A stretch of DNA of 64,000 nucleotides, from positions 51,765 to 115,764 of the forward strand of contig CAWBTR010000009.1 of NCBI GenBank assembly GCA_963791735.1, given 5' to 3'. Below, piece by piece: positions 38,357-59,161 of this stretch (within the stretch, counting starts at the first letter, position 1; each line of letters begins with the position of its first letter). Source of the stretch: an uncultured Acidobacteriaceae bacterium. GTDB taxonomy: Bacteria; Acidobacteriota; Terriglobia; Terriglobales; Acidobacteriaceae. The position numbers were made by a program, and so were the translations under genes. The notes under the pieces were generated by a model. It was given only the letters and a program-made list of their open reading frames with translations, was not told where the DNA came from and did not search any database.

Positions 38357-38362
38357 TGGGTC

Positions 38363-38911
38363 CTACCCGCGCTTCACCAGCCACCTCTCCACCTCGGCCA
38401 GCGACTCCACCCTCACATAGTCTCCGCCACACTCCCCAGTTTCAGTCCCGGTAATCAAAAACGCCTGCCGCAGTCCCGCCGCGTTCGCCGCCCCTATATC
38501 GGAGCAGCGATCACCCACTAGAACGCTCTCGCTTAGCTCCACTCCAAACTCCCGGGCCCCGCGCCGCAGCATTCCTGTCCCCGGCTTTCTATCCTCGTGC
38601 TCCCGCTTGTACTTACCCACCCCGTGCTCCGGATGAAACGGACAGCAATACACTGCGTCCAACTCGACCCCTTCGGCACGCAACTCTGCCCGCATGAACT
38701 CCATCAGCGCCTCATAGTCTTCCTCTGAGTAATATCCGCGTGCGATTCCCGCCTGATTCGTCACCACAATCAGCCGGTACCCGAGCCCGGTCGCCGCCCT
38801 GCAGAGGGAGAATATCCCATCGACAAACCGCAGCTCGTCGGCCCGATGCAGATACCCCACCTCCTCATTCACTACTCCATCCCGATCAAGAAATAAAGCC
38901 CGCTCCCTCAT
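38363..38911 (-). CDS. HAD-IIIA phosphatase, D,D-heptose 1,7-bisphosphate phosphatase (GmhB)-like
   Basis: FLDRDGVVNEE, VVTNQAGIARG, CPFHPEH, DRKPGTGML, VGDRCSDIGAA. Start ATG 38911 overlaps the rfbD stop (ATGA). The typical GmhB CxC before RKP is not present, so substrate assignment is tentative. Confidence 0.65.
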   Translation of the reverse strand: MRERALFLDRDGVVNEEVGYLHRADELRFVDGIFSLCRAATGLGYRLIVVTNQAGIARGYYSEEDYEALMEFMRAELRAEGVELDAVYCCPFHPEHGVGKYKREHEDRKPGTGMLRRGAREFGVELSESVLVGDRCSDIGAANAAGLRQAFLITGTETGECGGDYVRVESLAEVERWLVKRG

Positions 38912-42111: not shown

Positions 42112-42666
42112 TTAGTGAAAGCGATAAGCGGCGCCGATGCTAAAGAGCTTGGGAGTAAGACCGTTGGGCGGAAAACTTAACCATTGCTGATATTCGTACT
42201 CGGCCCTTACATTGAACCGCGGTACCACGTGGTAGTCGATACCACCGCCGATAGCGATGATGTTGTAGGCCAGGTTGGCGGCGGGTCCGATCTTCGGATC
42301 ACCATTTACGGGTGGGTAGTTAAAAACTCCTCGTCCATACATGAGCTTCGCGTAGGGCGCCCAACGCCCGTAGCGAAGAACATATCGAGGTCCGATTTCA
42401 TACGTGCGTTCGTAGATGCCTTCTGTCGCATTCGGATCGTTGACCTGGTGAAACTCCCCCTCAATACCGACGTGATATTTGAAATCGAACGTTGTATAAA
42501 AACCGTATCCTTTGAAGGTCTCCGGCCTGTAATCAGGACTCACCAGATTGAACATGGCGCCGATCTGTAGATCTCCAGCGCGCGATGCTGTGGGACTGGC
42601 CTGGCCGTAGAGCCGCGAGACTGTGAGACTGACAAGGCAGATCGACATTAAAATTTTTAGTCGCAC
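42112..42666 (-). CDS. Small outer-membrane beta-barrel protein (OmpW/OmpX-size porin-family)
   Basis: Signal peptide MRLKILMSICLVSLTVSRLYGQA. Alternating aromatic/Gly strands and a C-terminal ...FSIGAAYRFH. It lies 82 nt downstream of the giant repeat gene on the same strand. Confidence 0.6.
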   Translation of the reverse strand: MRLKILMSICLVSLTVSRLYGQASPTASRAGDLQIGAMFNLVSPDYRPETFKGYGFYTTFDFKYHVGIEGEFHQVNDPNATEGIYERTYEIGPRYVLRYGRWAPYAKLMYGRGVFNYPPVNGDPKIGPAANLAYNIIAIGGGIDYHVVPRFNVRAEYEYQQWLSFPPNGLTPKLFSIGAAYRFH

Positions 42667-42748: not shown

Positions 42749-44746
42749 TTACTGTGGCGACTGGTCGATGTGGAAGTCGACGACGACGGAGTGTTGAATA
42801 CCATTGCTCGTTGCAGTAATGGTGATCGGATAAGTGTGATCGAAGTACCCGCTTCCGCAGCCCGTCATGGTGCCAATGGCTCCAAGTGACAACAGCAGCA
42901 GCACCGAGTTTGTAATAATGCGTGCCAGTTTTTTACTCGTGCGACGGGAGTACCGAAGGCCCAGAAGAGGCAGCAGGAACAAGCCAAGTGCCACGTGCGA
43001 AAGTTTGCTCGACAGATCCTCATTCGAGGCAAGCTTGCGCGTCGCCACGGTGAGAACGATGTCCGCCGGACCACCAGTCTTCGATACCGTTGCCGGCGAG
43101 AAAGTGTAGGTGCTGAGCAGAGGACCGTTATCGTTTGTTGTGAACTGCACATCTCCCGGATAAGTGCCACCAATCGGAGCAATATGCAGAGTGAACTGCC
43201 GCGTGGTGCCGTACGTTCCCTCGACGGTGCCCGCGCTGGTGACCTGGAGGCTGAAGTCCAGGGGGGTGATGACGATGGTGTTCGCGCCGGTAGCTGCGGA
43301 AGCTGTGTTCGGGGCGAAGTCAGTATCTCCACTGTAGACCGCAACGATAACGTGTGTTCCGACCGAAAGCCCGGCGGAGGTAAAGGTCGCAACCCCGTTA
43401 GACAAAGTTGCCGATCCGATAATGTTTCCATTGTCGAGGAACTTGATGGTTCCAGTCGGGACGCCAGTGGTGCTTGAGGCCACGGTCGCTGTCATCGTGA
43501 CGTTTAGGCCGTATGCGATAGAAGACGCGCTGAGCGTAGTCGTGATGAGCGCGGGTGCCTGCGTAACCGTCAGCGTTCCGTTCTGCACCACCTGGATGTA
43601 GTCGCTGAGGTTGGCTCCGGAAGCGGTGGGGACAATTGGGTACTGACCCGGGTCAGAGGAGATGGTCGCAGTGTTGGCGAAGGTTTCGGTAAAGACGTCA
43701 CCATTCTCGGCGCCAGTGATGCTGCCTTGGAATACCGGGTTCGCTACACCGTAGAGGCGAGTGTAGCTATTAGCGGAGATCGTGAGAGTCGCCTGCGAGA
43801 CAGTGATTGGAACAACCTTGGTCGCAGAGGTGTAGTTCGCCGTATCGGTCGGGGTAAAGGTAACGGACAACTGCTTCGTACCGACCATGAGGACGGTTCC
43901 GGCCGCAGGGCTGTAGACGAAGGTGCCGTCCAATGGGGTGGTTCCATTCAACTGATAGGCAGCGGCGTCCAACTGAGTGGAGCTCAGCGGAGTTCCGTAG
44001 AGGATAGTCGCGGGATTCGGCCAGGTGAGGATCGGAGTGGTCTGGTTGACGGTCAACTGCACGGTCTTGGTGACGGAGGTGTAGTCGGTGGTGTCGGTCG
44101 GGGTAAAGGTGACCGAGAGCGTATCGACTCCTGCTGTTGGCACGCTGCCTGCGGCCGGAGTGTAAGCGAATGACCCAGCGACAGGAGCGGTAGCGTCGAG
44201 TTGTGCACTGGTGAGAGGTGTTCCGTACGAGACGCTCGTGGGAGTGGCCCATGTGATCGTGGGGGTGGCCTGCCCGACGGTCAACTGTACTGTCTTGGTG
44301 GCCGTCGTGTAGTTGACTGTGTCGGTCGGGGTGAAGGTGACGGTGAGGCTATCGGTACCAGCAGTGAGCACGCTGCCTGCGGCTGGGGTATACACGAACG
44401 ACCCAGCGACCGGCGTGGTCGCGTCGAGTTGTGCACCGGAGAGGACGGTTCCATAGGTGATGCCTGCAGGAGTGGCCCAGGTAATCGTGGGTGTAGCCTG
44501 ACTGACGATCAACTGCACGGTCGCGGTAGCTGTTGTGTAGTCGGTCGTATCAGTCGGCGTGAAGGTGACCGATAGCGTATCGGTACCGGCGGTCGGAACG
44601 CTGCCCGCCGCTGGAGTATAGGCGAACGAGCCTGGAACGGACGCGGTCGCATTGAGTTGCGTCGCGGAGAGCGCTGTGCCGTAGACGATGCTCGCCGGAT
44701 TGGACCAGGTGATCGTCGGCGTAGCCTCGGCGACGGTTAGTTGCAC
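42749..44746 (-). CDS. Giant adhesin-like repeat protein, C-terminal segment
   Basis: Four ~81-aa ITW..YGT..QL.AT...TFTPTDT..Y repeats, one MBG-type unit (SANSYTRLYGVANPVFQGSITGAENGDVF...), two Ig-like domains (TGTIKFLDNGNIIGSATLSNGVATF...), then two hydrophobic segments and a short tail. There is no independent start context: the upstream frame continues the same repeat. Confidence 0.8.
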   Translation of the reverse strand: MQLTVAEATPTITWSNPASIVYGTALSATQLNATASVPGSFAYTPAAGSVPTAGTDTLSVTFTPTDTTDYTTATATVQLIVSQATPTITWATPAGITYGTVLSGAQLDATTPVAGSFVYTPAAGSVLTAGTDSLTVTFTPTDTVNYTTATKTVQLTVGQATPTITWATPTSVSYGTPLTSAQLDATAPVAGSFAYTPAAGSVPTAGVDTLSVTFTPTDTTDYTSVTKTVQLTVNQTTPILTWPNPATILYGTPLSSTQLDAAAYQLNGTTPLDGTFVYSPAAGTVLMVGTKQLSVTFTPTDTANYTSATKVVPITVSQATLTISANSYTRLYGVANPVFQGSITGAENGDVFTETFANTATISSDPGQYPIVPTASGANLSDYIQVVQNGTLTVTQAPALITTTLSASSIAYGLNVTMTATVASSTTGVPTGTIKFLDNGNIIGSATLSNGVATFTSAGLSVGTHVIVAVYSGDTDFAPNTASAATGANTIVITPLDFSLQVTSAGTVEGTYGTTRQFTLHIAPIGGTYPGDVQFTTNDNGPLLSTYTFSPATVSKTGGPADIVLTVATRKLASNEDLSSKLSHVALGLFLLPLLGLRYSRRTSKKLARIITNSVLLLLSLGAIGTMTGCGSGYFDHTYPITITATSNGIQHSVVVDFHIDQSPQ

Positions 44747-47700
44747 CGTTTTGGTGACGGTGGAGTAGTTGGTCGTGTCGGTCGGCGTAAAGGTTACCGA
44801 GAGAGTATCGGTGCCAGCCGTCGGGACATTGCCTAAAGCAGGGGTGTAGACAAATGTTCCGGCAACGGATGCTGTCGCATCGAGCTGCGTCGTTGGAGAG
44901 CGCGGTTCCGTAGGTGATGCCGGCGGGAGCGGCCCAGGTGATTACTGGGGCAGCCTGGCTGACGACCAGCGAAACAGTCTTGGTGACTGTGGAGTAGTCG
45001 GTCGTATCAGTCGGGGTAAACGTGACTGAGAGGGTGTCGGTACCGGCGGTTGGAACACTGCCCAGGGCGGGAGTGTAGACGAATGTGCCTGCAACAGACG
45101 CAGTCGCGTCGAGCTGCGTCGCAGAGAGCGCCGTTCCGTAGGTGATACCTGCAGGAGGAGCCCAGGTGATCACCGGGGCCGCCTGGCTGACGACCAGTTG
45201 CACGGTCTTGCTGGCGCTGGTGTAGTCGGTCGTGTCGGTCGGGGTGAAAGTGACCGAAAGCACATCGGTACCGGCAGCTGGAACGCTACCGGCAGCGGGC
45301 GTGTAGGCAAATGTGCCCGCTACAGAAGAGGTGGCGTTGAGCTGCGTTGCGGAGAGTGCGGTTCCGTAGGTGATACCAGCCGGAGTGGCCCACGTGATGA
45401 CCGGAGTGGCCTGGCTGACGGTGATCTGCACGGTCTTGGAGATGCTCGTGTAGTCGGTGGTGTCGGTCGGGGTGAAGGTGACCGAGAGTGTGTCGGTGCC
45501 AGCCGCGGGGATACTGCCAGGGCAGGAGTATAGGTGAATGAGCCGGCGACCGAAGCTGTCGCATTCAACTGGGTTGCGGAGAGCGCAGTGCCGTAGACGA
45601 TGCCGGCCGGGTTGTTCCACGTAATCACCGGAGTGGCCTGGGTGACGGTGATCTGCACCGTCTTGGTGACGGTGGAGTAGTCAGTGGTATCGGTCGGCGT
45701 GAAGGTGACTGAAAGCGTGTCAGTTCCCGCGGTTGGGATGCTGCCAGCTGCAGGCGTGTAGACGAAGGAGCCTGCAACCGAAGCAGTGGCATTGAGCTGA
45801 GCGCCAGAGAGCGCAGTGCCGTAGACGATGCCTAGCCGGGTTATTCCACGTGATCACCGGAGCAGCCTGCGAAACGATGAGCTGGACGGTTGCGGTGGCC
45901 GTGGAGTAGTTGGTGGTGTCGGTCGGAGTAAAGGTGACCGAGAGCGTATCCGTGCCAGCTGTCGGAACGGTGCCAGCGGCAGGCGTATAGACGAGAGTGC
46001 CCGGTACAGAGGCAGACGCATTCAGCTGAGTAGCGGAGAGTGCCGTGCCGTAGACGATGCTCGCCGGGGTTGTTCCAGGTAATCACAGGTGCAGCTTGAG
46101 TGACGGTCAACGTGACGGTCTTGGTGACACTCGTGTAGTCGGTCGTGTCGGTCGGGGTGAACGTGACCGAGAGCGTATCCGTGCCGGCAACAGGGATCGT
46201 ACCGGCGGCAGGCGTATAGGCGAACGTGCCGGCAACCGAAGCCGTCGCGTTGAGCTGTGTGGCCGAGAGAGCAGTACCGTAGACGATGCTCGCCGGGTTA
46301 TTCCAGGTGATCACCGGTGCAGCTTGAGTGACGGTCAGCTGACGGTCTTGGTGGCGGTAGTGTAGTCGGTCGTATCGGTCGGGGTGAAGGTAACCGAGAG
46401 GGTGTCGGTGCCAGCGGCGGGGATACTACCAAGGGCAGGAGTATAGGCAAACGTACCGGCGACCGAGGCAGTCGCATTGAGCTGAGTCGCCGAGAGCGCC
46501 GTTCCGTAGGTGATGCTCGCCGGGTTATTCCAGGTGATTACCGGGGCGGCTTGGGTGACGGTGATCTGCACCGTCTTGGTCACAGTGGTGTAGTCAGTCG
46601 TATCGGTCGGAGTGAACGTGACCGAGAGTGTGTCAGTGCCAGCGGCTGGGATGCTGCCAGGGCAGGAGTGTAGACAAATGTACCGGCGACCGAGGCAGTT
46701 GCGTTGAGCTGAGTAGCGGAGAGCGCGGTGCCGTAGACGATGCCTGCCGGGTTATTCCAGGTGATCACCGGAGCAGCCTGCGTAACCGTAAGCTGGACGG
46801 TTACGGTGACTGTGGAGTAGTCGGTGGTGTCGGTCGGAGTGAAGGTCACCGAGAGGGTATCGGTGCCGGCAGCAGGGACAGTACCAGCGGCAGGCGTATA
46901 GACGAGAGTGCCGGCAACAGACGCAGACGCATTAAGCTGAGTGGCGGAGAGTGCGGTGCCATAGGTGATGGCAGCCGGAGGAGCCCAGGTAATGACAGGA
47001 GCAGCCTGAGTGACGGTCAACGTGACCGTCTTGGTGACACTGGTGTAGTCGGTGGTGTCGGTCGGGGTGAAGGTGACCGAAAGAGTGTCGGTGCCGGCGG
47101 CGGAGTCGTGCCCGCTGCCGGCGTATAGACGAACGTGCCGCGTACCGAAGCCGTCGCGTTCAGCTGAGTTGCTGAAAGCGCGGTCCCGTAGACGATATTC
47201 GCCGGGTTATTCCAGGTGATCACCGGAGCAGCTTGGGTGACGGTGAACTGTACCGTCTTGGTGACACTGGTGTAGTCCGTGGTGTCGGTCGGGGTGAAGG
47301 TCACCGAGAGCGTATCGGTGCCGGTCGCCGGAGTCGTGCCCGCTGCCGGCGTATACGCAAACGAGCCGCCCACCGAGGCCGTCGCGTTCAACTGCGTTGC
47401 CGAGAGCGTGGTCCCGTAGACGATATTCGCCGGGTTATTCCAGGTGATCACCGGAACGGCCTGGGTGACGGTGATCTGCACCGTCTTGGTGACACTGGTG
47501 TAGTCGGTGGTGTCGGTCGGGGTGAAGGTCACCGACAAGGTATCGGTGCCGGTCGCCGGAGTCGTGCCCGCTGCAGGCGTATAGGCGAACGTGCCGCCCA
47601 CCGAAGCCGTCGCGTTCAACTGCGTTGCCGACAGCGTGGTCCCGAAGGGGATGCTGGCCGGGTTGTTCCAGGTGATGACAGGAGCGGCCTGGGTGACGGT

Positions 47701-48370
47701 GAACTGACCGTCTTGGTGACACTCGTGTAGTCGGTGGTGTCGGTCGGGGTAAAGGTAACCGAGAGCGTATCGGTGCCGGTCGCCGGAGTCGTACCCGCAG
47801 CCGGGGAGTAGGCGAACGAGCCGGCAACCGAGGCCGTCGCGTTGAGCTGCGTTGCGGAGAGCGTAGTTCCGTAGGGGATGCTCGCCGGGTTGTTCCAGGT
47901 GATCACCGGAACGGCCTGCGTAACAACGATCTGTACCGTCTTGGTGACCCTGGTGTAGTCGGTGGTGTCGGTCGGGGTGAACGTGACCGAGAGAGTGTCG
48001 GTGCCGGTCGGCAGGAGACGTGCCCGCTGCAGGCGTGTAGACCAGAGTGCCGGCTACAGACGCAGTAGCATTCAACTGAGTGGCAGAGAGCGCGGTTCCG
48101 TAGGTGATGCTCGCCGGGTTATTCCAGGTGATGACAGGTGCGCCTGTGTTACAGACAGCTGCACGGTCTGGGTGACTGTCGTGTAGTCGGTGGTGTCGGT
48201 CGGGGTAAACGTAACCGAGAGCGTATCGGTACCGGCAGAGGGCTCCGTACCCGCCGCCGGCGAGTAAACGAACGTGCCGGCGACCGAAGCCGTTGCGTTC
48301 AACTGCGTCGCCGAGAGCAGGGTGCCATAGGGGACCCCGGCAGGGTTCGTCCAGGTGATGGTGGGAGTTG
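43795..48370 (-). repeat. About 19 tandem ~243-bp (81-aa) ITW..YGT..QLNAT..TFTPTDTTDY coding repeats
   Basis: Unit consensus QA.PVITWNNPA.I.YGTALSATQLNATASVAGTF.YTPAAGT.PA.GTDTLSVTFTPTDTTDYTSVTKTVQ.TVT, read across frames. (48370-43795)/243 is about 19. Resembles the Pfam MBG 'YGX type' as I remember it. Confidence 0.8.
44550..48075 (-). pseudogene. Frame-interrupted part of the giant repeat gene (about 14 units of the 243-bp repeat, about 10 frame changes)
   Basis: ORFs 47017..48075, 47616..47906, 46580..47020, 46335..46583, 45841..46314, 45320..45658 and 44550..45620 each contain stretches of the same repeat consensus. These alternate with its out-of-frame readings (e.g. DRHRHSLGHVHPDRHHRLH is the shifted reading of TDTLSVTFTPTDTTDY). 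Confidence 0.75.
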
Positions 48371-51300
48371 CCTTGGCCACGCTGAAGGTTGCGGTCTTGG
48401 TGGCAGCGGCGTAGTTGCTGTCAGCGGCTTCGGACGCCTGCAGCACCACCGTGCCGGTGCCGGTCAGGGTGACGGTTGCGCCCGAGATGGCCGCCGGACC
48501 CGAGACCACCGAGTAGGTGAAGGCCCCGGTCGAGTTCGAGGTCGCGGCCACGGTGAACGGAGCCGCACCATAGGTCTGGTTGGCCACGTTGAAGACGATC
48601 GTCGGAGTGCCGGCGCCGATGGTCAGGGTGCCGTTGACGAAGGTGAAGCTGTAGTTGGCTGCAGCCAGGGTGCCTGCCGCCGCGGTGATCGGATAAGTCC
48701 CGGCGTTGACCGGAGTCGCAGGCGAGGTGGTCAGGCTGGCGGTGCCGGTCACCACACTCGCGGTATCGCCGTTGACGAAGCCGGTGATGGTCGCGGTGTA
48801 GGGAGCGACGGTGCCGCCGAAGGCGATGGTCTGGTTCGCCGCCGTGACCGTCAGCACCGCCTTGGCCACGCTGAAGGTGGCGGTCTTGGTGGCAGCGGCG
48901 TAGTTGCTGTCAGCGGCTTCGGACGCCTGCAGCACCACCGTGCCGGTGCCGGTCAGGGTGACGGTTGCGCCCGAGATGGCCGCCGGACCCGAGACCACCG
49001 AGTAGGTGAAGGCCCCGGTCGAGTTCGAGGTCGCGGCCACGGTGAACGGAGCCGCACCATAGGTCTGGTTGGCCACGTTGAAGACGATCGTCGGAGTGCC
49101 GGCGCCGATGGTCAGGGTGCCGTTGACGAAGGTGAAGGTGTAGTTGGCTGCAGCCAGGGTGCCTGCCGCCGCGGTGATCGGATAGGTCCCGGCGTTGACC
49201 GGAGTCGCAGGCGAGGTGGTCAGGCTGGCGGTGCCGGTCACCACGCTCGCGGTATCGCCGTTGACGAAGCCGGTGATGGTCGCGGTGTAGGGAGCGACGG
49301 TGCCGCCGAAGGCGATGGTCTGGTTCGCTGCCGTGACCGTGAGCACTGCCTTGGCTACGGTGAAGGTGGCGGTCTTGGTGGCAGCGGCGTAGTTGCTGTC
49401 AGCGGCTTCGGACGCCTGCAGCACCACCGTGCCGGTGCCGGTCAGGGTGACGGTTGCGCCCGAGATGGCCGCCGGACCCGAGACCACCGAGTAGGTGAAG
49501 GCGCCGGTCGAGTTCGAGGTCGCGGCCACGGTGAACGGAGCCGCGCCGTAGGTCTGGTTGGCCACGTTGAAGACGATCGTCGGAGTGCCGGCGCCGATGG
49601 TCAGGGTGCCGTTGACGAAGGTGAAGGTGTAGTTGGCTGCAGCCAGGGTGCCTGCCGCCGCGGTGATCGGATAGGTCCCGGCGTTGACCGGAGTCGCAGG
49701 CGAGGTGGTCAGGCTGGCGGTGCCGGTCACCACGCTCGCGGTGTCGCCGTTGACGAAGCCGGTGATGGTCGCGGTGTAGGGAGCGACGGTGCCGCCGAAG
49801 GCGATGGTCTGGTTCGCCGCCGTGACCGTCAGCACCGCCTTGGCCACGCTGAAGGTGGCGGTCTTGGTGGCAGCGGCGTAGTTGCTGTCAGCGGCTTCGG
49901 ACGCCTGCAGCACCACCGTGCCGGTGCCGGTCAGGGTGACGGTTGCGCCCGAGATGGCCGCCGGACCCGAGACCACCGAGTAGGTGAAGGCCCCGGTCGA
50001 GTTCGAGGTCGCGGCCACGGTGAACGGAGCCGCACCATAGGTCTGGTTGGCCACGTTGAAGACGATCGTCGGAGTGCCGGCGCCGATGGTCAGGGTGCCG
50101 TTGACGAAGGTGAAGGTGTAGTTGGCTGCAGCCAGGGTGCCTGCCGCCGCGGTGATCGGATAAGTCCCGGCGTTGACCGGAGTCGCAGGCGAGGTGGTCA
50201 GGCTGGCGGTGCCGGTCACCACGCTCGCGGTGTCGCCGTTGACGAAGCCGGTGATGGTCGCGGTGTAGGGAGCGACGGTGCCGCCGAAGGCGATGGTCTG
50301 GTTCGCTGCCGTGACCGTCAGCACCGCCTTGGCCACGCTGAAGGTGGCGGTCTTGGTGGCAGCGGCGTAGTTGCTGTCAGCGGCTTCGGACGCCTGCAGC
50401 ACCACCGTGCCGGTGCCGGTCAGGGTGACGGTTGCGCCCGAGATGGCCGCCGGACCCGAGACCACCGAGTAGGTGAAGGCCCCGGTCGAGTTCGAGGTCG
50501 CGGCCACGGTGAACGGAGCCGCGCCATAGGTCTGGTTGGCCACGTTGAAGACGATCGTCGGAGTGCCGGCGCCGATGGTCAGGGTGCCGTTGACGAAGGT
50601 GAAGGTGTAGTTGGCTGCAGCCAGGGTGCCTGCCGCCGCGGTGATCGGATAGGTCCCGGCGTTGACCGGAGTCGCAGGCGAGGTGGTCAGGCTGGCGGTG
50701 CCGGTCACCACGCTCGCGGTGTCGCCGTTGACGAAGCCGGTGATGGTCGCGGTGTAGGGAGCGACGGTGCCGCCGAAGGCGATGGTCTGGTTCGCCGCCG
50801 TGACCGTCAGCACCGCCTTGGCCACGCTGAAGGTGGCGGTCTTGGTGGCAGCGGCGTAGTTGCTGTCAGCGGCTTCGGACGCCTGCAGCACCACCGTGCC
50901 GGTGCCGGTCAGGGTGACGGTTGCGCCCGAGATGGCCGCCGGACCCGAGACCACCGAGTAGGTGAAGGCCCCGGTCGAGTTCGAGGTCGCGGCCACGGTG
51001 AACGGAGCCGCGCCATAGGTCTGGTTGGCCACGTTGAAGACGATCGTCGGAGTGCCGGCGCCGATGGTCAGGGTGCCGTTGACGAAGGTGAAGGTGTAGT
51101 TGGCTGCAGCCAGGGTGCCTGCCGCCGCGGTGATCGGATAGGTCCCGGCGTTGACCGGAGTCGCAGGCGAGGTGGTCAGGCTGGCGGTGCCGGTCACCAC
51201 ACTCGCGGTGTCGCCGTTGACGAAGCCGGTGATGGTCGCGGTGTAGGGAGCGACGGTGCCGCCGTAGGCGATGGTCTGGTTCGCCGCCGTAACCGTCAGC

Positions 51301-54300
51301 ACTGCCTTGGCTACGCTGAAGGTGGCGGTCTTGGTGGCAGCGGCGTAGTTGCTGTCAGCGGCTTCGGACGCCTGCAGCACCACCGTGCCGGTGCCGGTCA
51401 GGGTGACGGTTGCGCCCGAGATGGCCGCCGGACCCGAGACCACCGAGTAGGTGAAGGCCCCGGTCGAGTTCGAGGTCGCGGCCACGGTGAACGGAGCCGC
51501 GCCATAGGTCTGGTTGGCCACGTTGAAGACGATCGTCGGAGTGCCGGCGCCGATGGTCAGGGTGCCGTTGACGAAGGTGAAGGTGTAGTTGGCTGCAGCC
51601 AGGGTGCCTGCCGCCGCGGTGATCGGATAGGTCCCGGCGTTGACCGGAGTCGCAGGCGAGGTGGTCAGGCTGGCGGTGCCGGTCACCACACTCGCGGTAT
51701 CGCCGTTGACGAAGCCGGTGATGGTCGCGGTGTAGGGAGCGACGGTGCCGCCGAAGGCGATGGTCTGGTTCGCTGCCGTAACCGTCAGCACCGCCTTGGC
51801 TACCACGATAGACACCGTCTTCGTTACCGGCGCATAGTCGGTCGTATCGGTGGGGGTAAAGGTGACCGATAAAGTCTGAGTGCCCTGAGACAGAACCGCA
51901 CCGAGAGCTGGAGTGTAGACGAGACTGCCGGAGATCGAACCCACGACGGTTGCATTGAGCTGGGTACCAGACAGTGCAGTGCCATAGGTGATTGCGGCCG
52001 GGTTGCTCCAGTTAATGACTGGTGTCACCTGGGTGACGGTTAAGGTGCCGGGATTGGTCACCACGTTGTAATTGGCCAGGTTGGTCCCTGCGGCTACCGG
52101 GTTGATGGGGTAGCTCCCTACCGGTGATGAGGGGGTGGCAGTGGTGGAGAAGCTCTCAGTGAATGTGTCACCGTTCACGGCACCAGTAATGGTTCCGGTG
52201 AAGGTCGGGTTGGCGGTGTTATACGGGCGGCTGAAACTGTTGGCCGATACGGTCAAGGTAGCCTGGGTGATGACCACCGAACCCGCTACAAAAGTGAAGG
52301 TGTAATTGCCGGAGGCCAGCGTGCCTGCAGCGGCAGTAATCGGATAAGTGCCAACATTGACCGGGGTAGCAGGAGTGGTGGTGAGCGAAGGAGCGCCTGT
52401 CGTGGCAGTGGACTGCGTATCGCCATTGACGAAGCCGGCAATGGTGTAGCTGTAGGGTGCGAGCGCCGTGCCGTACACCACCGTCTGGCTGTTGGCGGTA
52501 ACGGTAAGAGAAGCCTTAGTGATGACCACTGAGCCGTCAACAAAGGTAAAGCTGTAGTTCGCGGCCGTCAGTGATCCCGCAGCTGCAGTGACTGGGTAGG
52601 TGCCGGCGTTGACCGGAGTCGCCGGAGACGTCGTCAGCGACGGAGTGCCTGTGGTCGACGTTGCCTGCGTATCTCCGTTGACAAAGCCGGTGATCGTGTA
52701 AGTGTAAGGCGCAAGCGCCGTGCCGTACATCACGGTTTGGCTGCTCGCAGTCACGGTCAAGCTGGCCTTTGTAATTGTGGCCGTGCCGTTGACGAAGGTG
52801 AAACTGTAGTTGCTTGAGGCCAGCGAACCTATTGCCGCGGTGATCGGGTAGACGCCAACATTGACCGGGGTCGCCGGCGATGTCGTCAGCGATGGAGTGC
52901 CGGTTGTTGCAGAGGTCTGCGTGTCACCATGCACGAAACCGGTGATGGTGTAGGCATAGGGAGCCAGCGCAGTGCCATACACCACACTCTGGCTGGTAGC
53001 GGTCACCGTCAGAGTAGCCTGAGTAATGGTGGCCGTGCCGTTGACGAAAGTGAAGGTGTAATTGCTCGAGGCCAGCGAACCTATTGCCGCGGTGATCGGA
53101 TAGGTGCCGACATTGACCGGCGTAGCCGGGGATGTAGTCAGCGATGGAGTGCCGGTCGTCGCAGAGGCCTGCGTATCACCGTGGACAAAGCCGGTCATCG
53201 TGTAGGTATAGGGATCAAGTGAGGTGCCGTATACCACGCTCTGGTTATTTGCCGTCACCGTCAGGGTGGCCTGCGTGATCGTCGCCGTGCCGTTGACAAA
53301 ATTGAAGCTGTAATTGCCGGAGGCCAGCGAGCCGACTGCAGTGGTGATCGTATAGACGCCGGCGTTGACCGGAGTTGCCGGAGACGTGGTCAGCGTTGGA
53401 GCACCCGTCGTTGCAGTGGCCTGGGTATCACCGTGGACAAAACCGGTCATCGTGTAGGTGTAGGGAGCCAGCGCTGTGCCGTACACCACCGTCTGACTGT
53501 TCGATGTCACGGTTAAGACAGCTTTAGTAATTGTGGCTGTGCCGTTAACCACAGTGAAGTTGTAATTGCTGGCAACCAGCGAACCGACTGCAGTGGTGAT
53601 CGTATAGACACCTACGTTGACCGGAGTTGCCGGAGACGTGGTCAGCGTTGGAGCACCCGTCGTTGCCGACGCCTGAGTATCTCCGTTAACAAAGCCGGTG
53701 ATGGTGTAAGTGTAGGGAGCAAGCGCCGTGCCATATACCACGGTCTGGCTGGTCGCTGTAACGGTCAAGGTCGCTTTTGTAATCGTGACCGTACCGTTGA
53801 CAAACGTAAACGTGTAATTACTGGCGGCGAGCGAGCCCACCGCTGCCGTGACAGGATAGCTGCCCACGTTAACCGGGGTTGCCGGGGATGTGGTCAAGGA
53901 TGGAGCGCCGGTTGTTGCGCTGGCCTGGGTATCGCCGTTGACGAAACCGGTAATGGTGTAAGTGTAGGGAGCCAACGCGGTGCCGTACACAACGGTCTGG
54001 CTGTTCGCCGTCACCTTCAACGAAGCCGGGTTAATAACGACCGATCCGTTGACGAAGGAGAAAATGTAGTTGCCACCGGCGGCGAGAGAACTCTGGGCTA
54101 CCACGATGGGATAGGTTCCTACGTTGACCGGTGTTGCTGGCGTGGTAGTCAACGATGGCGTACCAGTAACTACCGAAGCCTGGGTGTCACCGTTCACGAA
54201 TCCGGTGATGGAGTAGGTATACGCAGCCAGCGCGGTCCCATAGGTTACTGTCTGGCTCTTGGCCGTCACCGTCAGCGTGGCCGGGTTCACCACGATCGTG

Positions 54301-56393
54301 ACAGTCTTGACTATTGGAGAGGCGTAGTCTGTGGTGTCGGTGGGAGTAAAGGTAACTTGTAGTGTATGAGAGCCCGCGGAAAGAACCGTGCCGCTCGCAG
54401 GGGAGTACACGTAGGTACCCGCAACGCCGCCCGCCGTTGCGTTGAGCTGAGTGCCGGACAGGGCTGTGCCGTAGGTGATCGCTGCTGGATTATTCCAGGT
54501 GATAGCCGGAGTAGCCTGGGTGATCGTCAAAGTGCCGGTGTTGACGACTACGTTGTAATCGGCGAGGTGAGTGCCGATAGCGGACGGCGTGATGGTATAC
54601 GTACCGACGGGTGAGGTGGTGATTGCCGGAGTGGAGAAGCTTTCAGTGAAAGTGTCACCGCTCACCGCGCCAACGATAGTTCCCGTGAAGGTCGGGTTGG
54701 CGGTGTTATAGACGCGGGTGGCGTTGTTGGCTGTGAGGGTCAGCGTCGCTTTATTGATGGTGATCTGACCGTTGACGTAGACGAAGCTGTAGTTGGTTGA
54801 AGCCAGACTGCCAGCCGCTGCCGTAAGCACATAGGTGCCAACCGCAGACGGAGTCGTTGGAGTCGTTGTCAATGATGGCGTGCCGGTAATGACGCTCGCC
54901 TGGGTGTCTCCATTGACGAAGCCGGTGATGGTGTAGGTATAGGGAGCAAGCGCCGTGCCGTAGACCACGCTCTGGCTGCTCCCTGTCACCGTCAGCGTCG
55001 CCTGGTTCACCACGATAGAAACGGTCTGGCTCGCTGCGGCGTAGTGTGTGGTGTCGGTGGGGGTGAAGGCGACCGAAAGAGTATGAGTTCCTGGGGTAAG
55101 AATTGTTCCGCTGGCAGGGGTATAAACGTAAGTGCCAGGAACCGGGCTTGTCGCAGACGACGATGTACCGAGGGACATCCCCAGAATTACGACATTGAGA
55201 TTATTGGGAAGCGTAATGCTGCTAACCGTTCTAGTGTTATCGAGAGCAATCTGGTAACCGTACAGGTTATAAGTGCCAGTTACCTGAGATCCACTGGATG
55301 TATCATCCTTTGTCGTCGTTACAACGATCGACTCCCCAGCAAAAGCACTTGATGCTGTCCAGTTGCTGAGACTGAGTTGCGTCGTAGTAGGAGCGCCAGT
55401 GGTGTAGTTGACGGTGAATGTCTGGTTCGCCTGTGCACCGTTAACTCCCGCTCCGATGAGAGACAGAGTCGTAAAGTTCCCCGGAGGAAGCGAGATCGTC
55501 GTGCTCGTCACCGCATCAGGAACACTTGGTGGCCCAAGTGCGAAGGTGATCCCGTTCCAGACAACGGACGTTCCCAGTTGATTGGCAGAGTACGAATTGC
55601 CGTTGCCGTCGAATCCTCCAACCTGATAGCTCACGCCGTCAGTAAAGAAGGCGCTAACGCGATAGTAGGCGGAAATCGGCACAGGGATCATGCCCGTTGC
55701 AGTTAGGGCGGTGGCATCAAGCTGCGTGGAGCTTAACGGTGTTCCGTAGTTGATGGGTGCGGGTGTGGGCCAGCTAAGGTACGCTGTCGCCGGATTGACG
55801 ACGAGTTGCACGGTCGCCGATGCGCTCGAGTAGTCGACGGTGTCAGTCGGAGTAAAGGTAGCCGAAAGAGTATCGGTACCAACAGCAGGGACTGTACCAG
55901 CAGCCGGCGTGTAAACGAGCGTCCCTGATACCGGAGGAGTAGTAAGCCCCATGGCCAGCATCACAACATTGCGTGTGTTCGGAAGCGTAATACTCTGTAC
56001 GATCCTCGTACTATCGAGTGCAATTTGATATCCGTAGACGCAGGTGGAGTGCGTGTCCTGTGCCCCGCCGGATTCATCGCGTGAGATGTCGCACTTCACG
56101 TTCGACTCGCCCGCGTAGTTCATCGGGTAGACCCAGTCGCTGAGACTCTGAGTCACCGTCGTCGGGGTTCCGGTGGTGTACGTCACAACGAAGGTATTCG
56201 ATGCGGTCGCGTTGTTGACCAACGCGCCAAGCATATTGAGGGTGGCGAAGTGGCCTTGTGGCAGGTTGATGGTTATATTGCTGACAGCATCGGCCGCGTT
56301 GAACGGCCCCATGGGGTAGGTCACGCCGTTCCAGCTAATCGATGTGCCCAGTTGGTTACCCGAATAGCATGTTCCCCCCGCCGTCGAATCCAC
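48072..56393 (-). CDS. Giant adhesin-like repeat protein, central 2,773-codon segment
   Basis: A single open frame. It contains two ~175-aa unassigned modules, several ITW..YGT repeats, about 11 MBG-type repeats (VVYGTALAPYTYTITGFVNGDTQAS...NYTFTFVNGT.TIT) and seven identical 163-aa MBG+Ig units. Confidence 0.85.
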   Translation of the reverse strand: MDSTAGGTCYSGNQLGTSISWNGVTYPMGPFNAADAVSNITINLPQGHFATLNMLGALVNNATASNTFVVTYTTGTPTTVTQSLSDWVYPMNYAGESNVKCDISRDESGGAQDTHSTCVYGYQIALDSTRIVQSITLPNTRNVVMLAMGLTTPPVSGTLVYTPAAGTVPAVGTDTLSATFTPTDTVDYSSASATVQLVVNPATAYLSWPTPAPINYGTPLSSTQLDATALTATGMIPVPISAYYRVSAFFTDGVSYQVGGFDGNGNSYSANQLGTSVVWNGITFALGPPSVPDAVTSTTISLPPGNFTTLSLIGAGVNGAQANQTFTVNYTTGAPTTTQLSLSNWTASSAFAGESIVVTTTKDDTSSGSQVTGTYNLYGYQIALDNTRTVSSITLPNNLNVVILGMSLGTSSSATSPVPGTYVYTPASGTILTPGTHTLSVAFTPTDTTHYAAASQTVSIVVNQATLTVTGSSQSVVYGTALAPYTYTITGFVNGDTQASVITGTPSLTTTPTTPSAVGTYVLTAAAGSLASTNYSFVYVNGQITINKATLTLTANNATRVYNTANPTFTGTIVGAVSGDTFTESFSTPAITTSPVGTYTITPSAIGTHLADYNVVVNTGTLTITQATPAITWNNPAAITYGTALSGTQLNATAGGVAGTYVYSPASGTVLSAGSHTLQVTFTPTDTTDYASPIVKTVTIVVNPATLTVTAKSQTVTYGTALAAYTYSITGFVNGDTQASVVTGTPSLTTTPATPVNVGTYPIVVAQSSLAAGGNYIFSFVNGSVVINPASLKVTANSQTVVYGTALAPYTYTITGFVNGDTQASATTGAPSLTTSPATPVNVGSYPVTAAVGSLAASNYTFTFVNGTVTITKATLTVTATSQTVVYGTALAPYTYTITGFVNGDTQASATTGAPTLTTSPATPVNVGVYTITTAVGSLVASNYNFTVVNGTATITKAVLTVTSNSQTVVYGTALAPYTYTMTGFVHGDTQATATTGAPTLTTSPATPVNAGVYTITTAVGSLASGNYSFNFVNGTATITQATLTVTANNQSVVYGTSLDPYTYTMTGFVHGDTQASATTGTPSLTTSPATPVNVGTYPITAAIGSLASSNYTFTFVNGTATITQATLTVTATSQSVVYGTALAPYAYTITGFVHGDTQTSATTGTPSLTTSPATPVNVGVYPITAAIGSLASSNYSFTFVNGTATITKASLTVTASSQTVMYGTALAPYTYTITGFVNGDTQATSTTGTPSLTTSPATPVNAGTYPVTAAAGSLTAANYSFTFVDGSVVITKASLTVTANSQTVVYGTALAPYSYTIAGFVNGDTQSTATTGAPSLTTTPATPVNVGTYPITAAAGTLASGNYTFTFVAGSVVITQATLTVSANSFSRPYNTANPTFTGTITGAVNGDTFTESFSTTATPSSPVGSYPINPVAAGTNLANYNVVTNPGTLTVTQVTPVINWSNPAAITYGTALSGTQLNATVVGSISGSLVYTPALGAVLSQGTQTLSVTFTPTDTTDYAPVTKTVSIVVAKAVLTVTAANQTIAFGGTVAPYTATITGFVNGDTASVVTGTASLTTSPATPVNAGTYPITAAAGTLAAANYTFTFVNGTLTIGAGTPTIVFNVANQTYGAAPFTVAATSNSTGAFTYSVVSGPAAISGATVTLTGTGTVVLQASEAADSNYAAATKTATFSVAKAVLTVTAANQTIAYGGTVAPYTATITGFVNGDTASVVTGTASLTTSPATPVNAGTYPITAAAGTLAAANYTFTFVNGTLTIGAGTPTIVFNVANQTYGAAPFTVAATSNSTGAFTYSVVSGPAAISGATVTLTGTGTVVLQASEAADSNYAAATKTATFSVAKAVLTVTAANQTIAFGGTVAPYTATITGFVNGDTASVVTGTASLTTSPATPVNAGTYPITAAAGTLAAANYTFTFVNGTLTIGAGTPTIVFNVANQTYGAAPFTVAATSNSTGAFTYSVVSGPAAISGATVTLTGTGTVVLQASEAADSNYAAATKTATFSVAKAVLTVTAANQTIAFGGTVAPYTATITGFVNGDTASVVTGTASLTTSPATPVNAGTYPITAAAGTLAAANYTFTFVNGTLTIGAGTPTIVFNVANQTYGAAPFTVAATSNSTGAFTYSVVSGPAAISGATVTLTGTGTVVLQASEAADSNYAAATKTATFSVAKAVLTVTAANQTIAFGGTVAPYTATITGFVNGDTASVVTGTASLTTSPATPVNAGTYPITAAAGTLAAANYTFTFVNGTLTIGAGTPTIVFNVANQTYGAAPFTVAATSNSTGAFTYSVVSGPAAISGATVTLTGTGTVVLQASEAADSNYAAATKTATFTVAKAVLTVTAANQTIAFGGTVAPYTATITGFVNGDTASVVTGTASLTTSPATPVNAGTYPITAAAGTLAAANYTFTFVNGTLTIGAGTPTIVFNVANQTYGAAPFTVAATSNSTGAFTYSVVSGPAAISGATVTLTGTGTVVLQASEAADSNYAAATKTATFSVAKAVLTVTAANQTIAFGGTVAPYTATITGFVNGDTASVVTGTASLTTSPATPVNAGTYPITAAAGTLAAANYSFTFVNGTLTIGAGTPTIVFNVANQTYGAAPFTVAATSNSTGAFTYSVVSGPAAISGATVTLTGTGTVVLQASEAADSNYAAATKTATFSVAKATPTITWTNPAGVPYGTLLSATQLNATASVAGTFVYSPAAGTEPSAGTDTLSVTFTPTDTTDYTTVTQTVQLSVTQAHLSSPGITRRASPTEPRSLPLS
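48371..51793 (-). repeat. Seven near-identical 489-bp tandem coding repeats
   Basis: The string ccttggc(c/t)ac recurs at 48371, 48860, 49349, 49838, 50327, 50816, 51305 and 51794, exactly 489 nt apart. Each unit encodes 163 aa. Only three amino-acid differences were seen among the seven copies. Confidence 0.95.
52265..54290 (-). repeat. Eight contiguous diverged 252-bp (84-aa) MBG-type coding repeats
   Basis: The repeated block is ATLTVTA.SQ.VVYGTALAPYTYTITGFV(N/H)GDTQ...TTG.P.LTTSPATPVN.G.YP.TAA.GSLA..NY.FTFVNG..TIT(K/Q). Boundaries are approximate. Confidence 0.8.
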
Positions 56394-56413
56394 CGTTCAG
56401 AACCGGAGACCCG

Positions 56414-59161
56414 TCAGTGATGATGCCGTCCACGTTGTAGTAGGTGGACAGAGGAACCAACGTGGTGCTGGTAACGGTTGCGTCCAGTTGTACATTGCTG
56501 AGCGGAGTGCCAAAGGCGATCGATGCCGGAGTAGGCCAAGTGATGATCGGCGTCAGCCTGATTGACGACCAGGGTCACGCTCGCCGTGGCAATGGTGTAG
56601 TCGGTCGAGTCGGTTGGAGTGAAGGTTGCGGTGATGGTGTAGGTGCCGGTCGCAAGCAACGTCGATGCGGACGGGTTGTATGCAAAAGTTCCTGCTACGG
56701 TTGCCGTCGCGTTCAACTGTGTGCTCGACAACAAGGTCCCATAAGTAATGGGACTCGGATTGGCCCAGGTGATAACGGGCGTTGCCTTGCCAACAGTAAT
56801 CCCAAATGCGGGTGAGGCCGGGCTGGGTGAGAAGTTGGTATCTCCGCCGTAGCTGGCGGTAATGCTGTGATTGCCTGTCGCGAGACTCGTGGTGTTGAAT
56901 GTCGCTATTCCGCCCGAGACAGGGGCTGTCCCAATCGATGTGCCAAAGTCAAAAAATGTGACGGTGCCCGTTGGCGTCAGGGCACCTACCTGCAGAGGAG
57001 AAGTCTGCAGCGTTGCAGTCAGAACCACTTGTTGCCCAAAGGCGGGGGTAGTGGTGTTCGCGCTCAGGAGCGTAGTCGTTGATACCATCGTCGATTGCAG
57101 CGCCACCGTATTGGAGGTGCTACCGCTAAAGTGCGCGTCTGCTGCGTAGATCGCGTCGATATTATGAAGATTGGGGGCCGTGGCGAGGCCATTGCCCGGA
57201 ATGTCAACGCCTGTAATTAATACGCTCGCCGAATCCGTCACCTGGTTCAGCAATATGCCAACGTTATTCGTGTTGCTGTTTGCTACCGCCAGGTCGGCGC
57301 TGCCGTCCCCGTTAAAGTCCGCCGCGGTTATCGCAACAGGAGTTGTTGTTCCGGTTCCGGTAGTGAACGGGGAACTGGTAGCTGCTGTGAACACCGTGCC
57401 GCTACCGTTACCCAACATGACGGTAGTCGTGTTGTCTGACTGGTTTGTGACAGCAAAGTCCACTTTTCCGTCTGCATTGAAGTCTCCTGAAACAATTGAC
57501 ACAGGCTTCGACCCAGTGGCGGGAGCGCCTGTCAGCAACGTGAAGGTGCCGTTGCCGTTTCCTTTGAAGATATCTACCCTGTTTTTACCGTTCTCCGCGA
57601 CCGCAAGATCAAGGATGCCGTCTCCGTTGAAGTCCGCAACTGCGATAGCAGCGGGACTTGTTCCAGCCCCCGTAGCGAAGGGAGAACCGGTAGCAGCTGT
57701 GAACACTGTGCCGGTGCCGTTGCCCAGCATGACGCTAATCGTGTTGTCATTCTGGTTGGAGACAGCGAAGTCCAGGTTGCTGCCTCCATTGAAGTTTCCT
57801 GTCACAATAGAAGTTGGACCATTGCCGACGGCAATTCCAGTCGGCGTAACATTTGAGAAACCGCCATTCCCATCTCCCTGCAGGATCTCCACCAGGCCTG
57901 CGCCGCCATTAGTATGAGTACCCAACACAGCGAGGTCGGGGATGCCATCCCCGTTAAAGTCCCCTATGGCAATTCCCGTGGAAGTCTTGCTGAGCAATGC
58001 AACAGAATAGGTCGTTTGGGTGTTGAAGGTGCCGTTTCCGTTTCCAAGCAAGATGGAAACCGTCTTGTCGCTGCTGTTTACCACAGCCAGATCAAGGTTA
58101 CCGTTGCCCTTAAAATCTCCTGCCACGATAGCAACCGGATTGTTGCCCGTTGGATACGTCGTCGCTGAGGGTGTAAATCCACCCGAACCATTCCCAATCA
58201 GAATGCTTACAGTCTGGTCGGTGTTGTTCAGTACAGCAAGATCAATAATGCCGTCGCCGTTAAAATCTCCAGCAACAATATCCTGTGGATTATTGCCTAC
58301 CGCAATCGGCGAACCGCCGCCCGCTACCGTCTGTTGTCCAAAAGCTCCAGCGCCCAGTGTTCCTGCCAATCCCACCTGTACGTTGGCGTTCGAGATGTCC
58401 TGGAGAGACACACTTCCAGTGGGCGAGAGATTGAGGCTGCCGATTCCCACGATGGTCGCGGTCAGTTGCCAGCTGCCCGCTACGCCCCCTGTTTGAGCAA
58501 GGCTGCCCGTCGTTGGATATAGGCCTGTAGTGGTTACCCCTTGTGCCGCCGAGAAACTGGTTAGAAAATTATTTGGCGGGTTGAAGGTTGCCACGATGGA
58601 GTGCGTGCCGATTCCACCAAGTTGCCGCATTAGAACTGCGTTGCCCGCTGTGCCGTGCGCCGACTGAACCTGGACTGTGCCGAGCACCGATGTGACGCTG
58701 CCGAAAGTATCTCGGAATGTGACAGTGCCGGCTGTCAGCGCCGATGTCCCTTTTACCGTCGCCGTCATAACGAATACGGATCCGTTGGCCATGCTCGGGG
58801 GATTCAACGGATTCACCGTAAGCGTAGTAGTCGTGGCCGTCTGCGCTCCCGCCACGGCATAGGACATCCCAATAAACAGCGTTACGCACAGAGCGGTGAC
58901 AGGACTTCTCCAAACGGAAGTTCTTCCACAACTCTTCGCACCATTAGAAACTTGCAATCTCTTATCGGCATCGCCGGAAACTTGTGGCAATCCAATTGCT
59001 CCAGGAGGTAATACCGTTTGGAGGCGGGACTGCGACAGCACATATTTCGCGGCGACCAGAGAGAACCAACGTGAGCCCCACGTGGATTTAGCGGATGAGA
59101 CTGACCGGCAGGAGCGAAGTGGGGACGCGGCACTCCGCGAAGACTTCATCATTACAGGCAT
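56414..59161 (-). CDS. Giant adhesin-like repeat protein, N-terminal segment (signal-like helix, Ig-like domains, 7-blade FG-GAP propeller)
   Basis: The hydrophobic PVTALCVTLFIGMSYAVAGAQ is at aa 87-107 of the listed ORF, so the true start may be downstream of 59161 (e.g. TTG 58957). Seven GDFNGDGxxDLAV-type blades lie at 57242-58324. Ig-like units flank them (TGTVTFRDTFGSV..., TGTVTFFDFGTSIGTAPVSGGIATF...). Confidence 0.8.
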   Translation of the reverse strand: MPVMMKSSRSAASPLRSCRSVSSAKSTWGSRWFSLVAAKYVLSQSRLQTVLPPGAIGLPQVSGDADKRLQVSNGAKSCGRTSVWRSPVTALCVTLFIGMSYAVAGAQTATTTTLTVNPLNPPSMANGSVFVMTATVKGTSALTAGTVTFRDTFGSVTSVLGTVQVQSAHGTAGNAVLMRQLGGIGTHSIVATFNPPNNFLTSFSAAQGVTTTGLYPTTGSLAQTGGVAGSWQLTATIVGIGSLNLSPTGSVSLQDISNANVQVGLAGTLGAGAFGQQTVAGGGSPIAVGNNPQDIVAGDFNGDGIIDLAVLNNTDQTVSILIGNGSGGFTPSATTYPTGNNPVAIVAGDFKGNGNLDLAVVNSSDKTVSILLGNGNGTFNTQTTYSVALLSKTSTGIAIGDFNGDGIPDLAVLGTHTNGGAGLVEILQGDGNGGFSNVTPTGIAVGNGPTSIVTGNFNGGSNLDFAVSNQNDNTISVMLGNGTGTVFTAATGSPFATGAGTSPAAIAVADFNGDGILDLAVAENGKNRVDIFKGNGNGTFTLLTGAPATGSKPVSIVSGDFNADGKVDFAVTNQSDNTTTVMLGNGSGTVFTAATSSPFTTGTGTTTPVAITAADFNGDGSADLAVANSNTNNVGILLNQVTDSASVLITGVDIPGNGLATAPNLHNIDAIYAADAHFSGSTSNTVALQSTMVSTTTLLSANTTTPAFGQQVVLTATLQTSPLQVGALTPTGTVTFFDFGTSIGTAPVSGGIATFNTTSLATGNHSITASYGGDTNFSPSPASPAFGITVGKATPVITWANPSPITYGTLLSSTQLNATATVAGTFAYNPSASTLLATGTYTITATFTPTDSTDYTIATASVTLVVNQADADHHLAYSGIDRLWHSAQQCTTGRNRYQHHVGSSVHLLQRGRHHH

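Follow-up and report, generated by a model that had tools for sequence, protein, structure and literature searches.

Giant Gram-negative surface adhesins of the RTX/type I secretion system (T1SS) kind, such as MpIBP, SiiE and LapA, possess an extender of tens of near-identical immunoglobulin (Ig)-like domains that projects the ligand-binding region. Periscope proteins, namely SasG/Aap, Rib, Sgo_0707 and CdrA, whose variable repeats are MBG_2 domains, are explained by a model in which high DNA identity between long repeats leads to intragenic recombination and hence to changes in repeat number and in the projection distance of the stalk (Whelan et al. 2021, PMC8201768). Fibrillar adhesins have been defined by at least one known adhesive domain combined with stalk domains, in a text that does not mention FG-GAP (Monzon et al. 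2021, PMC8286594). Here, we describe a giant gene on a 64,000-nt stretch of contig CAWBTR010000009.1 (assembly GCA_963791735.1), henceforth the window, to which all window coordinates refer. The gene belongs to an Acidobacteriaceae bacterium of the Edaphobacter/Tunturiibacter group and contains a block of seven near-identical 489-bp tandem units. We propose, with a probability of roughly 75%, that this block is a real, length-variable array in the long stalk of a secreted protein of ~5,470 residues that resembles fibrillar adhesins, and that its units are kept alike by recombination.

A block of seven near-identical two-domain units

Tandem Repeats Finder (TRF) detected a single array at 48370-51800 with a period of 489, 7.0 copies, 98% matches, 0% indels and a score of 6673. 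Seven units of 489 nt had already been delimited in an earlier inspection of the letters (the sequence-only reading), and both the TRF result and the unit comparison bear these boundaries out. Cut at these boundaries (48371, 48860 and so on to 51794), the seven units deviate from their consensus at 5, 4, 0, 3, 4, 5 and 6 of 489 positions. Any two of them differ at 3-10 positions, which corresponds to a mean pairwise distance of 1.27%. Mean identity amounts to 98.73% at the nucleotide level, 99.47% at the amino-acid level and 96.7% at third codon positions. The corresponding values for the seven flanking 252-bp MBG repeats (54026-52263) are 75.1%, 79.2% and 50%. The flanking repeats thus differ at about one residue in five, as had been proposed, and the alignment shows that the block is not similarly divergent (98.7% versus 75% nucleotide identity).

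Fifteen sites vary within the block. Three of these change an amino acid, namely F to Y at unit position 40 (copy 2), T to S at position 211 (copy 7) and S to T at position 478 (copy 5), which are exactly the replacements that the sequence-only reading had listed; the remaining 12 are all third codon positions. Such a bias (binomial P = 2.9e-4) is unlikely for random consensus error. The inter-copy variants are real and under purifying selection. A plus-strand open reading frame (ORF) of 1244 aa at 48138..51872 was rejected as a gene, as it is an antisense by-product of a repeat that is stop-free in that frame.

Residues 5-82 of the unit belong to the Pfam family MBG_2 (PF18676), covering profile positions 1-72 of 72 with 63.2 bits against a cut-off of 25. 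A Pfam search with the second half of the unit at E <= 10 gave no family, save one chance-level match. The AlphaFold2 model of the unit, based on 34 homologues, has a predicted local distance difference test (pLDDT) score of 94.5 and is all-beta with two beta-sandwiches, the second of which is confidently predicted for residues 85-165. In Foldseek searches, the whole unit matches tandem Ig/cadherin-like domains. The top matches comprise the staphylococcal adhesin SraP, InlK, cadherin-23 EC1-2, the Sap S-layer protein and the GhpA neck. These matches are fragments of linear multi-domain adhesins, cadherins and titin, and represent tandem beta-sandwich pieces of rod-like proteins. Given the MBG_2 profile match and the confident beta-sandwich model, the original description of the unit as MBG plus Ig-like appears reasonable, with the Ig-like nature of the second half being a structure-based prediction.

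Comparison with known adhesin families

The block shares several properties with the stalks of Periscope proteins. Its repeats are long, tandemly arranged, nearly identical in DNA sequence and predicted to form folded domains (98.7% nucleotide and 99.5% amino-acid identity; AlphaFold2 folds). The functional domain would likewise be distal and N-terminal on a stalk, and intragenic recombination is the mechanism proposed for both. The first half of the unit is of the same MBG_2 type as the variable repeats of CdrA, and SasG/Aap also repeat a two-part (G5-E) unit. In contrast to the Periscope proteins, the host is an environmental acidobacterium and not a host-associated pathogen. Furthermore, the unit is a hetero-pair of MBG_2 and an unclassified beta-sandwich, the protein contains three more repeat arrays that have diverged to other degrees, and it has neither an LPXTG anchor nor a two-partner-secretion (TPS) domain. 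The rod shape and surface display of Periscope proteins are putative for the giant protein. Repeat number in Periscope proteins differs sharply between close strains; here, the comparison is between metagenome contigs only and gives 0 units in a close relative (L008, see below) versus 7 at one locus. Moreover, whereas length variation in Periscope proteins takes the form of a copy-number series, the window locus displays presence or absence.

An assignment to the CdrA-type TPS adhesins was discarded, as the N-terminal 915 residues contain only FG-GAP and Big_3_5 domains and no TpsB-type gene lies in the neighbourhood. The very long, near-identical Ig-like extender is reminiscent of the RTX/T1SS adhesins MpIBP, SiiE and LapA. 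Unlike these, the giant protein has a putative Sec-type signal peptide, a hydrophobic C-terminal tail and a putative head at its N-terminus. Pfam and NCBIfam searches with the C-terminal 665 residues returned only Ig-like, MBG_2 and Big_3_5 domains, and neither RTX repeats nor a T1SS signal were found there; an N-terminal retention module of the RTX/T1SS type was not detected with the same two databases. Lacking RTX nonapeptide repeats and a T1SS signal, the protein does not fall into the RTX/T1SS class. A PEP-CTERM-type classification was also rejected, with no match supporting it. With regard to fibrillar adhesins, stalk-type tandem domains are abundant, and the FG-GAP repeats and a ~170-aa domain are candidate heads.

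The closest named relatives of the giant protein are annotated as 'MBG domain-containing protein' in Tunturiibacter empetritectus and 'beta strand repeat-containing protein' in Edaphobacter. Among species-representative genomes, the top match is just 42% identical. The giant proteins of Tunturiibacter/Edaphobacter, such as P0250 from the closed genome of the T. empetritectus isolate (CP132931.1; locus L010), share the FG-GAP head, Big_3_5 domains, MBG_2 arrays and a long near-identical array. The best local protein alignment with P0250 is ~50% identical. The repeated unit of L010 has a two-domain design like that of the block and measures 486 bp, but it combines a 76-aa Ig type with MBG, and the unit sequences are different.

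The block in related loci

We compared the window with a 1.02-Mb long-read metagenome contig (L008) that carries the giant gene between the same neighbours, a major facilitator superfamily (MFS) transporter and a Rieske oxygenase. The two sequences are 98.9% identical across 9,129 nt of flank, as far as window position 54874. Beyond this point, both the MBG array and the block are missing from L008, which contains at least 34 repeats of 228 bp instead and then rejoins the window array at 91% identity; 4.3 kb of 228-bp repeats stand in place of the 6.5 kb that MBG array and block occupy in the window. Judged from these sequences, the block is present or absent within one species.

A second locus (L006/L009) is separate from that of the window, with genes for a TonB-type outer-membrane protein (OMP) and a beta-lactamase upstream. 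Outside the block, the giant gene of L006 is just 68-75% identical to that of the window. L006 nonetheless contains ~13 units of the same type (A), whose substitution distances to the window units range from 0.6 to 6% (minimum 0.61%, mean 2.8%). The mean distance between units is 1.27% within the window and 3.2% within L006. A second unit type (B) follows the A units in at least 15 copies, which are 99% alike and 20% different from A, with hybrids at the transitions. Along L006 3776-17585, we observed A units, A-B hybrids, one B unit within the A run and a long B run, and 11 Ig-only units of 240 bp lie upstream. Such a pattern points to one unit type replacing another step by step, or to a confused assembly.

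Arrays of this kind also occur in other relatives, in which the Ig half alone is repeated 24, >29 and >77 times at 93-95% identity, and the two-domain unit of L010 >21 times at 97% identity. In addition, we compared the window with short-read-derived contigs from four independent soil and water metagenomes (X1-X4). Contigs from X1 have one 252-bp MBG unit fewer (53362-53615) and one 228-bp Ig unit more (45579-45806) than the window, and the 252-bp loss could be an assembly-graph artefact, as 52 nt are common across the joint. A search of Joint Genome Institute (JGI) metagenome contigs with an invariant 38-mer from the unit gave no exact match, and a 23-mer found only 4 distant, truncated loci. 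The sequence-only reading had anticipated a hotspot for copy-number change. This expectation agrees with the absence of the block in L008, the ~13 units of L006, the >21 to >77 copies in relatives and the gain and loss of one unit in the neighbouring arrays of X1. It had also anticipated a hotspot for assembly collapse, and indeed two long-read metagenome contigs (L005, L006) end inside such arrays and two short-read JGI contigs (L011, L012) stop within the first unit. Taken together, the compared sequences indicate that the arrays of this acidobacterial giant-protein family have been homogenised, vary in unit number, can be exchanged from gene to gene and are difficult to assemble.

These comparisons raise the question of an imported cassette, which would complement recombination within the array. 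In such a scenario, recombination with another giant-adhesin gene brought in the block, alone or together with the MBG array; the donor would be either a paralogue in the same genome or the gene of another acidobacterium like that of L006/L009. The units are 97-99% identical to the A units of L006 while the genes are otherwise 68-75% identical and the loci have different neighbours. L008, of the same species and at the same locus, has 228-bp repeats where the window has MBG array and block. Furthermore, the GC content at third codon positions (GC3) is 0.89 in the block compared to 0.60-0.71 in the host genome. However, the L006/L009 host is not GC-rich (55% GC in a 10-kb flank), and no high-GC donor was identified. 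For the MBG array adjoining the block, L006 offers no close match. Both L006 and L008 stem from a single metagenome assembly and could be chimeras, and transfer may have run in either direction. We regard an import as a serious option whose chances fall somewhat short of even.

Exchange between units versus a single recent amplification

The distribution of variants among the seven copies is mosaic. Eight of the 15 variable sites are common to 2-3 non-adjacent copies; copies 1, 6 and 7, for instance, have T at unit position 95, and copies 1, 2 and 7 have T at position 104. In a four-gamete test of 28 informative site pairs, 20 showed all four allele combinations. At least 5 exchange events are implied by the incompatible, non-overlapping intervals 2-14, 14-20, 20-95, 95-104 and 104-164. 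In addition, neighbouring copies are not more alike than distant copies. Eight sites (3, 9, 21, 41, 165, 294, 336 and 479) that vary in the window or distinguish it from L006 are polymorphic within the A-type units of L006 as well. These shared polymorphisms include the F/Y and S/T variants, and thus two of the three amino-acid variants.

The pattern favours homologous recombination, by unequal crossing-over and gene conversion, over a single recent amplification. This is because an amplification followed by new mutation predicts neither the mosaic nor the alleles shared with L006, while exchange within a pool of variants predicts both. In a simple, very recent amplification, one unit would have given rise to seven, all differences would be new mutations and exchange would not continue. 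The very low mean divergence of 1.27%, the exact register without indels and the lack of the block in the closely related L008 would all fit such an event. Against it stand the sites common to non-adjacent copies and the 20 site pairs, which are incompatible with any tree. The same alleles also occur in the L006 array of another gene and therefore predate the present arrangement. Moreover, the divergence within the array is as large as that between the flanks of window and L008 (1.1%). We thus consider a one-step amplification improbable. The block had been called 'very young or homogenised'; the second half of this proposal gains from the four-gamete failures and from the variants that recur in L006, and the first half, a simple young expansion, is disfavoured.

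Short-read contigs reproduce the unit, its variants and the block junctions

The contigs of X1-X4 match stretches of the unit exactly, as exemplified by an X3 contig of 365 nt with 0 mismatches. Inside the block, 22 of 50 contig ends abut a site that is variable in the window, compared to ~3% expected per end. It follows that the graphs assembled from other samples fork at these very polymorphisms. The k-mer depth is 2-6 for contigs of the adjacent single-copy MBG array, which show 0-1 mismatches to the window in X1-X4, versus 17-140 for contigs of the block unit. The resulting ratio of repeat to flank depth is ~7-12 in X3 and X4 and 12-23 in X1 and X2. These ratios are consistent with at least 7 copies but are not decisive, as they are confounded by other genes or strains with the unit and by low-coverage truncation. 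The upstream junction of the block is covered by contigs spanning 51762-52400 (X1, X2), and its junction with the 228-bp array by contigs spanning 48063-48412 (X1) and 48295-48412 (X3). From the exact contigs, the depth, the breaks at variant sites and both junctions, it follows that the near-identical copies, their variants and the position of the block are real. A chimeric contig as the source of the block position was rejected, since both junctions are present in independent samples.

An assembly or polishing artefact would mean that the assembler collapsed or expanded the array, or that polishing with multi-mapping reads made divergent copies alike. In its favour, the same gene of the window contig contains about a dozen 1-nt consensus errors, related contigs terminate within such arrays, the depth ratios of X1 and X2 exceed 7, and the copy number is that of the assembly. 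On the other hand, Illumina-derived contigs of four samples reproduce the unit exactly at 7-23 times the flank depth and break at the window's own variable sites, both junctions are confirmed, and variants are synonymous by 12 to 3. There are also zero indels across the 3.4-kb block, and an isolate genome of the family has the same kind of array. An artefact of this sort is hard to credit.

Architecture of the giant host gene

The coordinates of the block, the giant gene and its parts are compiled in Table 1. As assembled, the ORF that carries the block encodes 2773 aa (48072..56393, minus strand), and 1-nt indels split the giant gene. Relative to L008, single extra bases occur in the window at 56554 and 56369, exactly its two upstream frame breaks. 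L008 is open at both positions, and its own private indels break the frame at 57133, 56097 and 55322. A short-read contig from X4 also lacks the extra base at 56554. Short-read contigs differ by 1 nt from the window at 48142, 46064 and 44893/4, all of which are frame-switch points, and addition of the missing base at 48142 restores ...VTQATPVITWNNPASITYGTALSATQLNATAS... in the translation. Further frame switches lie between 44500 and 48100; the errors cluster in the 228-bp array, and none is found in the 3.4-kb block. The orthologues of the giant gene in the long-read metagenome contigs L004, L006, L007 and L008 are likewise fragmented. Since these five frame breaks are contradicted by L008 or by short-read contigs, the gene runs from ~59161 to ~42752. 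The breaks are consensus errors, and the giant gene is intact and a single gene of ~16.4 kb. A pseudogene was rejected, as 5 breaks are absent from L008 or short-read contigs and the breaks of L008 differ.

Table 1. Coordinates in the window of the seven-unit block, the giant gene with its parts, and the downstream gene
Feature	Position	Strand	Description	Basis
Seven-unit block	48371..51793	-	7 in-frame 489-bp (163-aa) units, each MBG_2 + beta-sandwich (predicted Ig-like); GC3 0.89	TRF, Pfam, AlphaFold2
Copies 1-7, in gene order	51305-51793, 50816-51304, 50327-50815, 49838-50326, 49349-49837, 48860-49348, 48371-48859	-		
Giant gene	42752..59161	-	~16.4 kb, ~5,470 codons after discounting 1-nt consensus errors; about a dozen ORF fragments as assembled	
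N-terminal part	56414..59161	-	signal-peptide-like segment (VWRSPVTALCVTLFIGMSYAVAGA followed by Q), 6 FG-GAP/VCBS repeats, Big_3_5 Ig domains	Pfam, translation
Beta-rich ~170-aa domain, 2 copies	54875..56393	-	each copy followed by an Ig-like domain; last stretch common with L008 (97.8% identity)	translation
Diverged MBG array	52263..54281	-	8 MBG_2 repeats of 252 bp; GC3 0.68	TRF (period 252, 77% matches); Pfam MBG_2 in 9 stretches
Pre-block segment	51794..52262	-	variant MBG domain + 76-aa Ig-like domain; final 10 nt (GTAGCCAAGG) common with the unit end	
228-bp array	44021..48370	-	~19 Ig-like repeats (76 aa), 78% identical; GC3 0.74; most frame breaks here	TRF, frame map
C-terminal part	42752..44020	-	MBG_2, Big_3_5, conserved tail	Pfam, translation
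Small OMP beta-barrel gene	42112..42666	-	184 aa, directly downstream of the giant gene	Pfam OMP_b-brl, 38.9 bits

In the N-terminal part, Pfam FG-GAP_3 scores 172 bits over 6 stretches and Big_3_5 scores 78 bits, and the FG-GAP/VCBS repeats probably form a beta-propeller head. The beta-rich ~170-aa domain has no Pfam match and is a candidate ligand-binding module. Its two copies at ~56390-55900 and ~55700-55200 (minus strand) display the motif …NQLGTS..WNG..F.LGP…LYGYQIALD…LPNN.NVV.L.M.L, which is present in L006 too.

The C-terminal tail (42752-43050, minus strand) consists of one hydrophobic segment, the motif RYSRRTSKK, another hydrophobic stretch that closes with a lipobox-like MTGC, and ~35 further residues. 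It is conserved in L007 (15908-16555), with RYSRR(T/S)..K and MTGC followed by GSGYFDHTYPITITATS...DQ. The tail has no match among the sorting-signal models of NCBIfam or Pfam and may be an unrecognised anchor or sorting module. The OMP_b-brl gene downstream occurs at the same position in L007 (16584-17195) and may therefore encode a functional partner of the giant protein. The giant gene is neighboured by genes for a Rieske oxygenase, an MFS transporter and this small OMP beta-barrel. Further downstream (30900-41872), we found dTDP-sugar enzymes (RmlA, RmlB and RmlD-like) and a Wza-like polysaccharide export protein, so that the giant gene adjoins a cell-envelope polysaccharide cluster.

Third-position GC content rises with array homogeneity

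The GC3 of the block is the same in both unit halves, and four-fold degenerate sites are 88% G+C. For comparison, GC3 is 0.60 at the N-terminus of the window gene, 0.60-0.71 in other window genes and 0.68 in the diverged MBG array of the same gene. We extended this comparison to six loci, including one isolate genome (window, L004, L005, L006, L007 and L010). Across these, arrays with 93-99% identity have a GC3 of 0.84-0.95, those with ~85% identity 0.75-0.80, and those with 78% and 75% identity 0.74 and 0.68, respectively. The array of L010 has a GC3 of 0.90. Non-repeat parts of the window and its relatives lie at 0.59-0.71. GC3 and array identity are correlated with a Spearman rho of 0.83 (P = 0.0016) over 11 arrays that are not independent of each other. 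A literature search returned no report of this pattern of GC3 and homogeneity in adhesin repeat arrays.

GC-biased gene conversion has reportedly been proposed for bacteria, by Lassalle et al. in 2015. Such a process, or a common ancestry of high-GC units, is a possible cause of the gradient. A broader hypothesis holds that the repeat modules are mobile cassettes exchanged between diverged genes, and that the intensity of intragenic conversion leaves a footprint in GC3; we put it forward tentatively, with the odds rather against it.

Discussion

The mechanism that we propose begins with a protein laid out, from N- to C-terminus, as signal peptide, FG-GAP head, Ig and unassigned domains, diverged MBG array, block, ~19 Ig-like repeats and hydrophobic anchor. 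The head would comprise the N-terminal FG-GAP propeller and the ~170-aa domains, and the anchor the hydrophobic C-terminal tail, possibly together with the downstream OMP. Unequal crossing-over and gene conversion between units would shuffle and homogenise the block. The same recombination would add, remove and transfer units, such that strains and paralogous or orthologous genes come to differ in the number or presence of units. The outcome would be a heritable and rapidly variable stalk length, as proposed for Periscope proteins. A length-variable stalk, which was already suggested in the sequence-only reading, agrees with the domain architecture, the predicted fold and the Periscope concept. 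The surface location, the rod shape and the selective value of length variation are likewise what we infer from these features.

Several points weigh against this interpretation. The copy number of seven is a reading of the assembly across the 3.4-kb block, and the high depth ratios of X1 and X2 could mean either more copies or extra loci or strains with the unit. Recurrent mutation at hot third-position sites could mimic some of the four-gamete failures and shared polymorphisms. The contrast between window and L008 at the same locus, with 7 versus 0 units and a changed neighbouring array, is a cassette replacement and not a simple change in copy number. L006 and L008 are error-prone long-read contigs, the former ending in an array, and their repeat structures may be partly misassembled. 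Finally, NCBIfam and Pfam revealed no known anchor or secretion family in the giant protein, so that its surface location is a matter of inference.

Both the recombination mechanism and the kind of protein are already known from the Periscope model. What goes beyond the earlier inspection of the sequence is that the unit is common to two diverged genes, that the block is present or absent within a species and that GC3 rises with homogeneity. If conversion has indeed left such a footprint, the gradient would be an exceptionally clear mark, internal to a gene, of GC-biased gene conversion in bacteria. Should it result from biased conversion, such arrays would allow the process to be measured inside one gene, where expression and genomic context do not differ.

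In metagenome assemblies, consensus errors systematically split genes of this type, and contig ends cut them short. The size, integrity and copy numbers that they show in public metagenome-assembled genomes are therefore not to be taken at face value. The giant gene provides a worked example of four arrays, each at its own stage of divergence, within one gene. The variable-length-stalk principle of the Periscope proteins, known mainly from pathogens, would be extended to the abundant Acidobacteriaceae of soil.

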